Below, piece by piece: positions 7,495 through 27,150 of a stretch of DNA of 31,280 nt. The DNA is from a virus (lineage: Duplodnaviria; Heunggongvirae; Uroviricota; Caudoviricetes), in IMG/VR virus record IMGVR_UViG_3300045988_033906, positions 1 through 31,280 of that record. One strand, 5' to 3'. Position 1 is the stretch's first letter, and each line of letters opens with the position of its first letter. Under the pieces are notes generated by a model. That model was not told where the DNA came from. It searched no databases and saw only the letters and a list, made by a program, of their open reading frames with translations. The translations under genes and the position numbers were made by a program.

Positions 7495-7506
7495 GTGACA
7501 TGTCAC
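7495..7506. repeat. 12-bp perfect palindrome GTGACATGTCAC, copy 1 of 3
   Basis: Identical 12-mer also at 24688-24699 and 27139-27150; here it lies between a stop codon and the terminator hairpin. Confidence 0.5.
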
Positions 7507-7513
7507 GCTCACG

Positions 7514-7654
7514 TTATGACAAACCTATATACCCTGCTACACCAGATAATATCAAAACAACTGCAACAGCAAATTCACCATCACCAATGATACATTTACG
7601 GTTCATAACGCCAAGTGCAACAAGAGCGAACACAACGAGAATAAAAGCAATCAT
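7514..7654 (-). CDS. unannotated 46-aa hydrophobic micro-protein (two predicted TM segments)
   Basis: Below ORF-track size cutoff. ATG at 7654 with AAGGA about 6 nt upstream, immediately after the stop (7664-7666) of the 824-aa gene; translation MIAFILVVFALVALGVMNRKCIIGDGEFAVAVVLILSGVAGYIGLS; followed by the palindrome and terminator. Confidence 0.45.
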   Translation of the reverse strand: MIAFILVVFALVALGVMNRKCIIGDGEFAVAVVLILSGVAGYIGLS

Positions 7655-7663
7655 TTCTCATCC

Positions 7664-10138
7664 TTATTGCGGAGTGACATCCTGCGGTCGCCACCAGTAT
7701 GTCTGATTAAACTCTTTCTTCGAACGTTGCTCCATTTTACGCAAATAGCCTGGTGAAAAATACTCCTGCATCTGGTTAAAGATCATGTGATCGAGAGCCG
7801 CCTTCAAGTACCAGAGATTCGCACCTGGCATCAGCCCCTTCCCAAGCTTAACCAGATCACCACCAGTCTGCTCATTCTTCCCTTCCACAGCATTTAACGG
7901 TATGCCCTGAGCAATCTTCACTACGTCATCAACCAGACCAGCTACCGGGCCAAGCATCGACGCCAGCGCGCCGCTTCCGTACCTAGTGTGATCTGACAAT
8001 AAAAAGTCACCGTAAAGGCCAAGACCACCACCTTTCAGTAGAGCACCAAGCCAAAATTTAGCAGCATCTTCCCCCGTCATCTCGCGAGGATTACGACCAG
8101 ACGCAAGGTCGTTAAGTTGCTGCGACAAAGCGCCAAGAATGGTCGTACTGGCAATAAACGTCGCAATATATGCCGCACGCCCACCAGCAGACGGCATCCC
8201 CATAGCGCGTGACCAGTGACGCATAACAACCGAGATAGGGAACGATTTAAACAGGAAAACACTTCTCGTTAATTCACCTTTCCATGTTCCACGCTGAATA
8301 CCAGAACCGGTTATCAGTTGCTCACGTGCTCCCGGTGTAATAACAGCCATATCAATTTCTTCAGTTACGGCACCGAGCAGTTTACGCATTGCCTCAAATT
8401 TCACGCGTTCAGGCTCACCAAGATGTTTAACTGCTGAATCAGGGATACGCATAATGCTTTCCGGTGTCAGCATCGTATTATTACCGTTCCCCCAGTCCTC
8501 CTGTTGCGCCAGCTTCCATACGCTCCAGTCTGTGTCAGTAATCCCTTTGCTTTTCAGGATACGAAAATCAGAGTCATCGAGGCTACGAAGGTCTGGTGTC
8601 CGTGACACTACTTCTCCCAGGCTTCCCATCATAGTTACGCCATAGGCGCGCTTGTGCGCATCTGACCATGCTGTAAGCCCACTGGCACGCATTACCGCCG
8701 TTGCCGCCCAACGAGACACAGACGGCCCCATATTATCCATCGCCCAGCGGTTAACGCTGCCAAGTAGAGATTCCATCGCCAGACCAGCTCGGCGCGCCCG
8801 CGCAAGCTCAGTACGGTTCGTTGGGTCAATAGCTTCAAGCTGGTTGCGGAATAACTGGTTCATTGGAAGGTTGGTAACCTTCGCAGACAGATACATGGTT
8901 CCAAGATCAGAGAACGATGACAGCAACGCGGATCCGAGTCTGCTGGCAACCAGCCAGTTGCGGATATTGTCAGACCATCGCGCGATGTGCGGATTCGCTA
9001 CAGGCTGTGTCTTTCCGGAAATAAAGTTGTACAGATTCTCTGTGTTGTTCGCCAGCCGCTCGACTTTACCGGTTTTACTCGGGTTAGCTGTTGCCGTTTC
9101 TGCCTTAACCTGATCAAGAAGGGAGCGGAAAACATGATCGGGGTTTGGACCATATGTTTCCACCAGTGCAATATCTTTACTGATACCTTCCAGGTGACCG
9201 ACCATGATTTCCCATAGAGAGCGATCGCCATAAAGTTGCTGATATTGCAGATAGGAATCTGCATCTTTGAAATGTATCTGTCGTGATGCATTACCACGGT
9301 TAGCACGTGCGCCGGAAATTCGCATTCCGGTATCAGTAAGCTTATTCAGCCCACCAGTAGCGATCGTGTTATAAGCCTCTCCAAGAAATGCAGACAACTC
9401 GGCATCGTTCATCAGTTGTCCATCGGCTCGGATATAATATTTGCGATCCAGCTTACCTATAACATCGCTAACCCACTTATCCTTTGATACCGCCCCAACC
9501 TTTTCCATAGAATGATGTTGAGGGATCCCCCAGTTTTCGAGATAGCCAATGTCCCCACCAGCATCATTAAACCGGCGGCGCAGTAGCTCTGTCACTTCTC
9601 TCCACGCCTTAGCACCTTTTCTTGCTTTAGCATTGCCAGTATTTTGCCCCCGCATTTCATATACCAGGTCACGTACGCCCGCTTCATCTTCAAACAGACC
9701 AAAAAAGCGAGGATCAACTGCTTCGAATGCCTCCTGCAATTGACTCAATGCATAATCACGGGTGGCTTTTGTTCTGGATTCAACAGAGAGGAAATTCGAT
9801 TTACCGTCTGCATTAAAAGCAATAGTACGGTTAAGAGCGCCAAGTTTCCCATCAGCCCCTTGATAGCTATTGATAAATTTATCCAATCTCTGACGTGCGG
9901 CTATAGTGAGGGCCACACGACGTTTCTTTAATGCCGCTTCTCGCTGTAATTCTTCAGATGCCAATTGTGCTGCACGATATAGCCGCTCTGATTCGGAAAG
10001 TTGTCTCCACGACATCGTGTCATCACGAGCAATGGAGCGCATATTTCGATAAATGCGGTCTTCAATGTTCTGTATTTCTCGCGCCGTTAACGTGCGCTGC
10101 GCCGCCTGCTGGACCGCTTGTATACATTCCTGTCTCAT
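7664..10138 (-). CDS. internal virion / ejection protein (large)
   Basis: 824 aa; RBS GAGAGG before ATG 10138; last of a run of large genes between tail tubular genes and tailspike, the position of T7 gp15/gp16-type core proteins; no enzymatic motif recognised. Confidence 0.7.
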   Translation of the reverse strand: MRQECIQAVQQAAQRTLTAREIQNIEDRIYRNMRSIARDDTMSWRQLSESERLYRAAQLASEELQREAALKKRRVALTIAARQRLDKFINSYQGADGKLGALNRTIAFNADGKSNFLSVESRTKATRDYALSQLQEAFEAVDPRFFGLFEDEAGVRDLVYEMRGQNTGNAKARKGAKAWREVTELLRRRFNDAGGDIGYLENWGIPQHHSMEKVGAVSKDKWVSDVIGKLDRKYYIRADGQLMNDAELSAFLGEAYNTIATGGLNKLTDTGMRISGARANRGNASRQIHFKDADSYLQYQQLYGDRSLWEIMVGHLEGISKDIALVETYGPNPDHVFRSLLDQVKAETATANPSKTGKVERLANNTENLYNFISGKTQPVANPHIARWSDNIRNWLVASRLGSALLSSFSDLGTMYLSAKVTNLPMNQLFRNQLEAIDPTNRTELARARRAGLAMESLLGSVNRWAMDNMGPSVSRWAATAVMRASGLTAWSDAHKRAYGVTMMGSLGEVVSRTPDLRSLDDSDFRILKSKGITDTDWSVWKLAQQEDWGNGNNTMLTPESIMRIPDSAVKHLGEPERVKFEAMRKLLGAVTEEIDMAVITPGAREQLITGSGIQRGTWKGELTRSVFLFKSFPISVVMRHWSRAMGMPSAGGRAAYIATFIASTTILGALSQQLNDLASGRNPREMTGEDAAKFWLGALLKGGGLGLYGDFLLSDHTRYGSGALASMLGPVAGLVDDVVKIAQGIPLNAVEGKNEQTGGDLVKLGKGLMPGANLWYLKAALDHMIFNQMQEYFSPGYLRKMEQRSKKEFNQTYWWRPQDVTPQ

Positions 10139-10143
10139 TTAAT

Positions 10144-26881: not shown

Positions 26882-26884
26882 ATG

Positions 26885-26911
26885 CAAAATAAAGCCGCCA
26901 TAGTTGGCGGC
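26885..26911 (-). terminator. rho-independent terminator separating early-region genes from terminase operon
   Basis: GCCGCCA (26894-26900) / TGGCGGC (26905-26911), loop TAGT; on the minus strand followed by TTTATTTTG. Confidence 0.5.
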
Positions 26912-26916
26912 AGTAT

Positions 26917-27129
26917 TCAAAGTCCATCAAATTCATCGTAAAAACTCTCGTCAAGATACCCTTCCCATTTACCGCGAATGAAAATTACATCCTCGCCGCA
27001 AGGGTGCTGACTGTCGATAACTATATCCCTCCTGGCGCAACCATACTTATGCATGAGAAATTTAACCTCTTTCGGAAAATTTGCTGAGTTATCTCTCATA
27101 TCTTCAAGGTCGTAGCGTATTTTTGGCAT
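26917..27129 (-). CDS. hypothetical small protein
   Basis: ORF-track start 27150 is GTG inside the palindrome; ATG 27129 has RBS GAAGGTG; 70 aa (MPKIRYDLEDMRDNSANFPKEVKF...), no homolog recognised. Confidence 0.45.
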   Translation of the reverse strand: MPKIRYDLEDMRDNSANFPKEVKFLMHKYGCARRDIVIDSQHPCGEDVIFIRGKWEGYLDESFYDEFDGL

Positions 27130-27138
27130 AACACCTTC

Positions 27139-27150
27139 GTGACATGTCAC
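27139..27150. repeat. 12-bp perfect palindrome GTGACATGTCAC, copy 3 of 3
   Basis: Overlaps the TGA stop of the 112-aa gene and precedes the RBS of the next gene. Confidence 0.5.

Follow-up and report, generated by a model that had tools for sequence, protein, structure and literature searches.

A conserved 12-bp palindrome at operon ends of an epsilon15-like prophage, a likely operator of a small adjacent-encoded protein

The stretch of DNA analysed here (the window, 31,280 nt in full) belongs to a prophage of the phiV10/epsilon15-like type (Uetakevirus), whose late genes are encoded on the minus strand. The palindromic 12-mer GTGACATGTCAC is found in three exact copies (sites 1, 2 and 3; Table 1) and nowhere else in the window. 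The initial annotation had counted three perfect copies and put the chance expectation far below one, and both statements hold: 0 of 100 dinucleotide-preserving shuffles of the window contain any copy, and the analytic chance number for a 12-bp palindrome in 31 kb is ~0.002. When mismatch variants are included, the k-mer count rises by one near-copy with 1 mismatch, GTGCCATGTCAC, and another with 2 mismatches at 1805. The former is probably coding-constrained, because it is missing in epsilon15; the same variant also adjoins a perfect site in a P2-like locus (L090). A full-text search of the literature for the 12-mer found no papers.

Table 1. Palindrome copies, adjoining terminators and neighbouring genes, in window positions
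Feature	Position	Strand	Context
Accessory gene (phrog_450, weak anti-repressor similarity)	7091..7471	+	SPC32H ant position; ends before site-1 terminator
Intrinsic terminator hairpin, AGGCCGCTTTCGCGGCCT then TTTCTTTATG	7477..7494	-	Directly 3' of site 1, late direction
Site 1, GTGACATGTCAC	7495..7506	.	3' of last gene of structural operon (minus); convergent with + accessory gene
46-aa membrane protein (phrog_7892)	7514..7654	-	Last gene of structural operon; stop 7 nt before site 1
1-mismatch copy, GTGCCATGTCAC	21682..21693		Inside 98-aa ORF 21449-21745
tRNA-Arg	24070-24146		Accessory, with gene 24345-24683 near site 2
Accessory gene (Pfam Phage_gp49_66, like Sf6 gene 66)	24345..24683	+	Ends 4 nt before site 2
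Site 2, GTGACATGTCAC	24688..24699	.	Between terL stop (24774, minus) and convergent accessory-gene stop (24683, plus)
Intrinsic terminator hairpin, AGCCAGCCGATGAGCTGGCT then TTGTTTTATC	24704..24723	+	4 nt 3' of site 2
terL	24774-26249	-
terS (true ATG start)	26246-26842	-
Intrinsic terminator	26894..26911	-	Between regulator gene and terS
70-aa ORF (phrog_1541)	26920..27129	-	Inserted directly after site 3
Site 3, GTGACATGTCAC	27139..27150	.	Holds TGA stop (27149-27147, minus) of regulator gene; upstream of terS-terL unit
Candidate cognate binder, 113 aa, epsilon15 gp49 / phiV10 gp55 family (phrog_536)	27147..27488	-

On the minus strand of site 1, the stop of the 46-aa membrane protein gene is followed by 7 nt, the palindrome, an abutting hairpin (7494 to 7477) and a T-run, whereas on the plus strand the order is stop (7471), hairpin, palindrome. 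At site 2 the plus strand carries the TAA stop of the accessory gene, 4 nt, the palindrome, 4 nt, the hairpin and a strong T-run, which is present on this strand only, the minus strand having just GTTTG. The polarity from site to terminator at site 2 follows the accessory gene and not late transcription, a counter-point to the reading developed below; in relatives, other genes occupy the position of this accessory gene. The order of stop codon, palindrome and terminator hairpin described for two cases in the initial annotation is thus that of site 2 on the plus strand and of site 1 on the minus strand, and the plus-strand insertions said to border the first two copies are the phrog_450 gene and the Phage_gp49_66 gene with tRNA-Arg. 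The overall arrangement stands with these strand details added, and the third copy overlaps the stop codon of the regulator gene.

Downstream of site 3 the terminator lies 228 nt away in the window, compared with 22-23 nt in epsilon15, Tyrion and SPC32H, because the 70-aa ORF has been inserted there. Only a 3' remnant of this ORF is left in phiV10 and PAS61, and epsilon15 is without it. The palindrome is not itself an intrinsic terminator: its own hairpin is worth -1.2 kcal/mol, no better than in shuffles, it has no U-run of its own, and the true terminators are separate adjacent hairpins. In epsilon15, Tyrion and L093, GTGACA could act as a -35 element, with a plausible -10 (TAAATT) at 17 bp, but the window, phiV10 and most of the remaining lineages have lost this arrangement, and it is not general.

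The same three junctions carry the 12-mer in related phages, all copies being exact in epsilon15, SPC32H and PAS61. Tyrion also has three junction copies, the third straddling the ends of the record, and phiV10 has three, the third (site 3) with 1 mismatch. Some close relatives have single-base changes at site 2 or 3. The DNA of these relatives with conserved junction sites is only ~76-81% identical to that of the window, with matches over the range 76-98%, and the sequence flanking the 12-mer diverges within a few bases. The presence of the motif at homologous junctions, on which the initial annotation had let its proposal depend, is therefore confirmed for epsilon15, SPC32H, Tyrion, PAS61 and phiV10. 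Its second condition, a comparable density of the motif across the host genome, is disfavoured by the composition-matched controls. The phiV10 and Tyrion records start inside the palindrome, yet both were opened after the last gene by annotation choice and Tyrion is permuted, and the palindrome was accordingly rejected as a genome end.

The terS-terL transcription unit (24774..26842) is bracketed by sites 3 and 2, and in Vibrio phage K303 a site at 35942 lies 31 bp before terS, as might be expected of a packaging signal recognized by terminase (pac). The circular permutation of Tyrion points to headful packaging (PMC5754475). A pac site would not be expected in three dispersed copies per genome, however, and in P2-like and N15-like relatives the gene and its site occur at positions unrelated to packaging, making this role highly improbable.

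The borders drawn by the palindrome could also suggest a passive module-boundary or recombination linker for the swapping of accessory genes, with no protein partner, as the initial annotation had offered. Variable DNA starts a few bases from the palindrome at sites 2 and 3, the slots are filled by different accessory genes in the window, PAS61, epsilon15, Tyrion and SPC32H, and the 70-aa ORF of the window is inserted right after site 3. A linker, however, needs neither palindromy nor perfect conservation, 12 bp is too short for efficient homologous recombination, and operon ends tolerate insertions anyway. It also leaves unexplained why podophages, siphophages, P2-like and N15-like phages all have the site embedded in the stop codon of a single gene family, with lineage-specific centres (see below). 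The sites do fall at borders between backbone and variable DNA, but a passive linker would not account for 12 bp that stay perfect over such an evolutionary distance and are tied to, and co-vary with, a single protein family; this is a side effect at most, and we regard the linker as improbable.

The gene whose stop codon lies in site 3 is the last of the early-right operon. Its 113-aa product is predicted to begin with a basic helix, followed by a ribbon-helix-helix (RHH) domain, and to end in a Cys4 zinc ribbon. The initial annotation had named small zinc-finger proteins encoded at 27147-28096 as possible binders; the gene block was right and holds the candidate, but the protein is an RHH with a zinc ribbon, not a pure zinc finger, and the neighbouring gene (27478-27861) encodes an unrelated ASCH-like protein. 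Foldseek returned no significant PDB relatives, phrog_536 is without a Pfam model, and the searchable literature yielded no experimental description of the family. The long helix and CxxCGxx[LIV]P zinc ribbon weakly match the C4 zinc-finger proteins TraR and YbiI of the TraR/DksA group. This kinship was rejected, as it reaches E about 0.04-0.05 only and is unsupported by the fold search; TraR inserts its helix into RNA polymerase, whereas the corresponding helix of the phage protein belongs to the RHH domain.

The association between the site and this protein extends well beyond the epsilon15-like phages. Homologues were searched with the narrower of our alignments (A3), A1 and A2 being too divergent for a degenerate-pattern genome scan. 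In 74 loci picked by homology to the protein alone (49-81% identity, one genome per species, 1.41 Mb), the exact 12-mer occurs 78 times compared with ~0.08 expected, and a site is found in 68 of the 74. The genera include Citrobacter, Klebsiella, Pantoea, Xenorhabdus, Providencia, Proteus, Pectobacterium, Yersinia, Rahnella and an Advenella MAG. Spacing and arm order are strict: GTGAC-N2-GTCAC occurs 96 times, each other spacing from N0 to N8 only 0-4 times, and the arm-swapped GTCAC-N2-GTGAC not once in these loci. In the opposite direction, the family is encoded in 46 of 120 IMG/VR stretches that hold TGTGACATGTCACG and a further 26 are epsilon15-like, whereas an arm-swapped control 14-mer retrieved 76 stretches from the whole IMG/VR collection, none of which encodes the family.

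Within the homologue loci the commonest position of the 12-mer overlaps the stop codon of the homologue. A site lies within 45 nt of the stop of the family gene in 46 of 80 loci, and in 29 of those 46 the TGA is inside an arm; within +/-10 kb, a site is absent in 6 of the 80 (for example L087, L107 and L152). An outward-pointing terminator is found within 45 nt of 23 of the 78 sites, compared with 6% of random positions and 9% of ORF ends. A recognisable terminator adjoins only about 30% of the sites, which is a counter-point to the operator reading. Of the remaining sites, some fall within genes (phiKO2 repA, and a cII-like gene at its 3' end) and some are just upstream of a ribosome-binding site. 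The pair of protein and site is found as a cassette in podophages, lambdoid siphophages, and P2-like and N15-like prophages of Enterobacterales, Vibrio and Aeromonas.

With more distant homologues the GTGAC/GTCAC arms are retained, but the two bases between them differ from lineage to lineage. Proteins with an xKxE β-strand are mostly paired with an AT centre. phiKO2 Gp45, with the strand RRDWVLE, has three GTGAC-TG-GTCAC sites; the centres in Vibrio phage K303 are GC, AC and AC; Yersinia phage YenM_56.17 has a GC centre at the stop of its own regulator gene; and among the remaining loci L286/287 have two GC-centre sites and L285 has AG at its own stop. The centre dinucleotide (AT, TG, GC/AC or AG) thus appears to track the subfamily of the β-strand that is predicted to read the DNA, which is supportive evidence from sequences that are not phylogenetically independent.

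This pattern also bears on a possible role of the element at the RNA level, where it might form a small hairpin or a processing site at mRNA 3' ends. All three copies are transcribed and stand next to terminator hairpins. The hairpin of the palindrome is weak, however, and folds apart from the terminators; the arms are invariant where a structural RNA would have compensatory changes, the centres vary freely, and the element works in either orientation. We give an RNA role hardly any probability, and nothing supports the restriction/modification or processing site that the initial annotation had listed.

The arms of the phage site are identical to those of matS, the site of the Ter macrodomain organiser MatP of E. 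coli, whose consensus is 13 bp, GTGACRNYGTCAC (PMC6907758). The palindrome could thus be bound by a host protein, with MatP as the obvious candidate, which the phage would use to position or organise its DNA. However, matS has an RNY centre of 3 bp, whereas the phage site (GTGAC-AT-GTCAC, 12 bp) has a lineage-variable centre of 2 bp, and this spacing excludes the palindrome as matS. In the 1.4 Mb of homologue loci there are 96 sites with N2 and 2 with N3, neither of the latter with an RNY centre. The variation of the centre with the phage protein subfamily would be left unexplained by a fixed host specificity, and the site goes with the phage gene, not with host taxonomy. Binding by a host factor is therefore very improbable. 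Homology between MatP and the 113-aa protein was likewise rejected (hhalign probability 0.3%): MatP is a four-helix bundle with a coiled coil that organises chromosomal DNA, whereas the phage protein has a zinc ribbon, is phage-borne, and has its sites at gene boundaries.

Taken with conserved junctions, gene-family linkage and co-variation, the operator for a phage regulator envisaged by the initial annotation is strongly supported by comparative evidence. As for an RHH operator, the site is a perfect inverted repeat and the adjacent gene has a predicted RHH fold, and the 12-mers are very probably docking sites of this small DNA-binding protein. An RHH dimer would place its two-stranded β-ribbon in the major groove at the palindrome centre, leaving the invariant GTGAC/GTCAC arms to be contacted by neighbouring segments of the protein (the basic helix at the N-terminus or else the zinc ribbon). 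The gene, with its TGA inside the left arm, moves with one copy of the site as a cassette. The palindrome is not an operator of the prophage repressor, the annotated repressor operators of epsilon15 (ATTACC-N5-GGTAAT) being a different motif.

In the window, three transcription units in succession (early-right, terS-terL and portal-to-tail) each have one of the sites at their 3' end, next to an intrinsic terminator, and the bound protein would decide whether RNA polymerase reads through these boundary terminators. We consider it likely that GTGACATGTCAC is the operator of the 113-aa protein and that this protein controls read-through at the boundaries. Both the binding and its transcriptional effect are what we infer from conservation, gene linkage, co-variation, predicted fold and the anatomy of the junctions. 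The arrangement differs from that of Arc and Mnt, the repressors whose operators in the phage P22 immI region overlap promoters, in that the sites described here adjoin terminators at 3' ends and one is set in a stop codon; moreover, the protein carries an additional zinc ribbon and lacks sequence homology to Arc and Mnt.

The direction of the effect could go either way. The bound protein may promote read-through in the manner of lambda Q, a tentative suggestion to which we lean because of the recurrent order of site, hairpin and T-run and because of the Q-like position of the gene before the late genes. As with lambda Q, and also Q21 and Q82, the gene is last in the early-right operon, directly before the late (lysis or terminase) genes, with a specific DNA site (predicted here) and an intrinsic terminator between regulator and late genes. 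The layout of gene, site, terminator and terS is shared by epsilon15, Tyrion, SPC32H and the window, whereas K303, L287 and L288 have gene, promoter-terminator module and holin (lysis genes). The Q-like gene position is seen in the epsilon15-like phages, Vibrio phage K303 and two lambdoid loci, and no recognisable Q was found among the neighbouring genes there. Unlike with Q, whose DNA binding element is embedded in the late promoter with a promoter-proximal pause, the site does not appear to lie within a promoter, there are several dispersed sites, and the protein has no match to Q in Pfam, NCBIfam or PHROG, its predicted fold being RHH. In K303 and L287, sites lie 100-600 bp upstream of a putative late promoter. 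Because phiKO2 has a Q protein, and P2-like phages have Ogr, alongside a member of the family, the family cannot be a universal late switch. For an antiterminator, the palindrome-bound dimer would contact RNA polymerase on its arrival at the terminator, 0-25 nt downstream, and allow it to read through. It is rather unlikely that the RHH-zinc-ribbon dimer represents a novel class of site-dependent antiterminator without structural kinship to the known ones; known RHH proteins are mostly repressors, and we know of no RHH antiterminator.

The same pair of protein and site might instead have the opposite effect, the bound dimer acting in a repressor-like way as a roadblock or insulator that strengthens the boundary terminators. 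It would confine transcription to its own unit and prevent antisense transcription of convergent genes, a possibility about which we are equally cautious. A symmetric site acts both ways, and the junctions are convergent at sites 1 and 2 of the window and in L287 (Bro-N/HTH genes). In the P2-like YenM_56.17, the site and a terminator close the early operon before opposite-strand genes, where read-through would be harmful, and shut-off would also suit the sites located within the early cII-like and repA genes and the one in the leader of the antirepressor operon of phiKO2. Each late sub-operon of the window also has its own repressor-operator-like TTACC-N5-GGTAA, and the late genes may therefore not need read-through. 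On the other hand, a roadblock placed upstream of the terminator and in the stop of the regulator would stall polymerase in the regulator frame and make the terminator redundant. Moreover, the late strand showed no sigma-70-like promoter upstream of terS, the portal gene or the tailspike gene, which favours late expression by read-through.

To our knowledge, the late-gene control of epsilon15/phiV10-like phages, which include O157 typing and serotype-converting phages, has not been worked out, and the question is now narrowed to one protein and three exact DNA sites. For an RHH protein it is unusual to have a site that overlaps the stop codon of its own gene and is paired with terminators, and the arm identity with matS raises the question of cross-talk with MatP. 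If termination is modulated, the mechanism would be new. If the protein is an antiterminator, it would switch on the terminase, structural and later genes, and would be a functional counterpart of lambda Q with the fold of a repressor, which podophages and siphophages alike have reused. Even if it is a plain repressor site, GTGAC-N2-GTCAC would provide a useful annotation rule for placing transcription-unit and module boundaries in these phages.

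Across >80-90% of bases 7000-31280 the window is 97-98% identical to Escherichia phages in the phiV10/epsilon15 group (genus Uetakevirus); identity to Enterobacter phage Tyrion is 81%, and to Salmonella phage epsilon15 it is 77%. Late genes occupy the minus strand, ordered from high to low coordinates. The terS ORF as listed and in the phiV10 annotation (TTG start, 224 aa) overruns the terminator and operators; terS translation probably begins with the ATG at 26842. A tRNA-Arg (anticodon TCT) within the late region is oriented opposite to the late genes and adjoins an Sf6 gene-66-like accessory gene. 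No integrase was found in bases 1-1800; phiV10 has one there, after the lysis genes. This segment probably consists of DNA flanking the prophage or belongs to another element.

Features of the window and, in the last three rows, of other family loci
Feature	Position	Strand	Remark
Lambda-P-like replication gene, then nin-like region	30430-31230 (gene)		first in late-gene order
113-aa ORF	27147-27488		after nin-like region, ahead of terS
phrog_1541 ORF (70 aa)	26920-27129	-	between site 3 and pre-terS terminator
terS and terL	24774-26842	-
Accessory gene and tRNA-Arg	24070-24683	+	tRNA 24070-24146
Portal-to-tail genes	23642 down to 7664	-
46-aa membrane protein	7514-7654		after portal-to-tail genes in late order
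Accessory gene	7091-7471	+
Tailspike	4907-7018
O-acyltransferase	3782-4873	+
Lysis genes	1813-3619		last in late-gene order
DUF5384 protein	1054-1593	+
Glycine-zipper/TraT-like lipoprotein	520-1038	+
Palindrome sites 1, 2, 3	7495-7506, 24688-24699, 27139-27150
ATAACACC	24680-24687, 27128-27135	+	directly left of sites 2 and 3
Bidirectional terminator	4880-4918		between tailspike and O-acyltransferase genes
Half-site GTGACA	4913-4918
TTACC-N5-GGTAA motifs	3715-3729, 7123-7137, 23733-23747, 26842-26874, 30316-30392
Pre-holin promoter-terminator, L290 (Vibrio phage K303)	33336-33495
Pre-holin promoter-terminator, L287	4130-4240
Pre-holin promoter-terminator, L288	2150-2290

The palindrome GTGACATGTCAC occurs exactly three times in the window, at the positions reported in the initial annotation, and in none of 100 shuffled sequences; a mismatch-tolerant count adds a single 1-mismatch copy at 21682. 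An intrinsic terminator adjoins each site. The order stop codon, palindrome, terminator hairpin, noted previously for two copies, is correct for site 2 (plus strand) and site 1 (minus strand), and at site 3 the TGA stop of the 113-aa ORF falls within the palindrome. The 12-mer is unlikely to act as RNA, since its hairpin is negligible (-1.2 kcal/mol).

Several other elements accompany the sites. The phrog_1541 ORF is an insertion of which only the last ~30 nt are left in phiV10 and PAS61, and it is absent from epsilon15, Tyrion and SPC32H. The bidirectional terminator is followed by a lone half-site with three mismatches to the full 12-mer; this could be the remnant of a fourth site or have arisen by chance. 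The 8-mer ATAACACC lies 0 nt from site 2 and 3 nt from site 3, sharing bases with a stop codon in one case and with a start codon in the other; its presence is probably coincidence.

The motif recurs at the same junctions in related phages. The whole genomes of epsilon15, SPC32H and PAS61 contain exactly three copies each, Tyrion has three with one spanning the record ends, and phiV10 has two exact copies plus GTGACATGTTAC spanning the record ends. One copy, ahead of terS, overlaps the stop of the gp49/gp55-type gene, another lies just beyond the hairpin downstream of terL, and the third directly follows the small gene that ends the structural operon, ahead of a terminator. A packaging signal is an unlikely reading of the palindrome. 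Flanking sequences differ between phages within a few bases of the 12-mer, and the accessory genes adjoining sites 2 and 3 vary from phage to phage. Among 80 close IMG/VR relatives, site 3 is almost always intact and site 2 is mostly present, at times with one substitution or lost. Literature searches turned up no account of the motif. It is unlike the annotated repressor operators of epsilon15 (ATTACC-N5-GGTAAT). Those operators do have matches in the window, where TTACC-N5-GGTAA is present seven times (0.64 expected), preceding the lysis, tailspike, portal and terS units and also in the interval that separates the P-like replication gene from the early gene after it. Every late sub-operon seems to carry a prophage-repressor site.

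The 113-aa ORF belongs to phrog_536 ('transcriptional regulator') and to no Pfam or NCBIfam family. Its homologues form 152 representative clusters (50% identity), and 53 diverse members align with a basic N terminus, a strand-helix-helix core and four conserved cysteines. Scanning one genome per species with the family alignment yielded 74 loci. Protein identity is 49-81% in all but two of them, which are Vibrio-type and reach 28-31%. The 1.41 Mb of these loci contain 78 exact copies of the 12-mer, and an exact or 1-mismatch copy is present in 68 of the 74. GTGAC-N2-GTCAC is found 96 times, versus 0-4 times when the arms are spaced differently and not once for an arm-swapped control. A site lies ≤45 nt from the stop of the family gene in 46 of 80 loci, with the TGA inside an arm in 29. 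Among the matches listed for TGTGACATGTCACG (at least 120 IMG/VR stretches), 46 of 120 encode the family and another 26 are epsilon15-like. The arm-swapped control 14-mer is present in 76 stretches of the whole collection, none of which encodes the family. Against this association, the boundary or recombination linker suggested initially is unlikely as a passive element.

More distant family members keep the arms and alter the two central bases (AT in the window). PhiKO2, whose Gp45 is 38% identical, has three GTGAC-TG-GTCAC sites (at Gp45's own stop, inside repA and in the antirepressor operon leader). In K303 the centers are GC, AC and AC, and its sites include ones between the regulator and holin genes and 31 bp ahead of terS. 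A GC center is present at the family gene's stop in YenM_56.17, a P2-like Yersinia phage, and at two sites in L286/L287; in L285 the site at the family gene's stop is centered on AG. One P2-like locus, whose homologue is 39% identical, carries an exact AT site adjoining a 1-mismatch copy. In ten Pantoea-type loci (L086, L106, L115, L121, L122, L127, L133, L139, L154, L155), a second conserved inverted repeat, CCTGTTGCAGCAGG, lies 10-20 nt past the site, before the next gene's ribosome-binding site; this subclade (β-strand GKKLEL) has the non-AT centers CT, GT and AC. The centers follow residues of the predicted DNA-reading strand, which points to the phage protein, rather than to a host factor whose specificity is fixed, as the partner that reads the site, and makes host MatP an unlikely binder. 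The co-variation is supportive rather than conclusive, since the lineages are non-independent samples. The palindrome shares its arms with matS (GTGACRNYGTCAC; PMC6907758), and both MatP and, by prediction, the family protein are ribbon-helix-helix (RHH) proteins. However, the two sites are one base pair apart in spacing, and profile comparison, using a MatP sequence checked against 4D8J, found no homology, so membership in the MatP-matS family was rejected; by analogy, recognition resembles that of MatP-matS from outside that family. With linkage and co-variation added, the initially proposed operator role is well favored, and the palindrome is probably the operator of an uncharacterized RHH-zinc-ribbon regulator.

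We infer the regulatory outcome from sequence context. An outward-pointing terminator lies ≤45 nt from 23 of 78 sites in diverse loci; the corresponding rates are 6% at random positions and 9% at ORF ends. The 46 sites after a family gene's stop are followed by a terminator in 18 cases and the next gene's start in 19. Other repeated settings are short gaps directly before ribosome-binding sites and the 3' end of a cII-like activator gene (phrog_163), where an exact copy ~60-75 nt ahead of the stop is unchanging while neighboring codons drift (L109, L120, L129, L131, L137, L138, L141-L143, L157-L159; prophages of Providencia, Xenorhabdus, Proteus, Morganella, Yersinia and Rouxiella). In L091, L092, L098 and L099 (prophages of Citrobacter, Pseudocitrobacter, Erwinia and Kluyvera), a promoter with a LexA-box-like tactgt-N8-acagta lies ~40-60 nt past the site at the family gene's stop, and this slot appears to hold an inserted SOS-controlled gene.

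Intragenic sites, together with convergent junctions and RHH precedent, would suit a roadblock or insulator, a tentative possibility. Equally tentatively, the bound regulator might control read-through, perhaps by antitermination, which is favored by the site-hairpin-T-run geometry and the Q-like gene position. In epsilon15-like phages, K303 and two lambdoid loci, the family gene holds the position of lambda Q and no recognizable Q lies nearby; the family co-occurs with Q in phiKO2 and with Ogr in P2-like phages. In K303, L287 and L288, the RHH-zinc-ribbon gene occupies the Q position with no Q homologue recognized, and a module ahead of the lysis genes, a promoter-like element and then a strong intrinsic terminator directly upstream of the holin gene, resembles lambda PR'-tR'.
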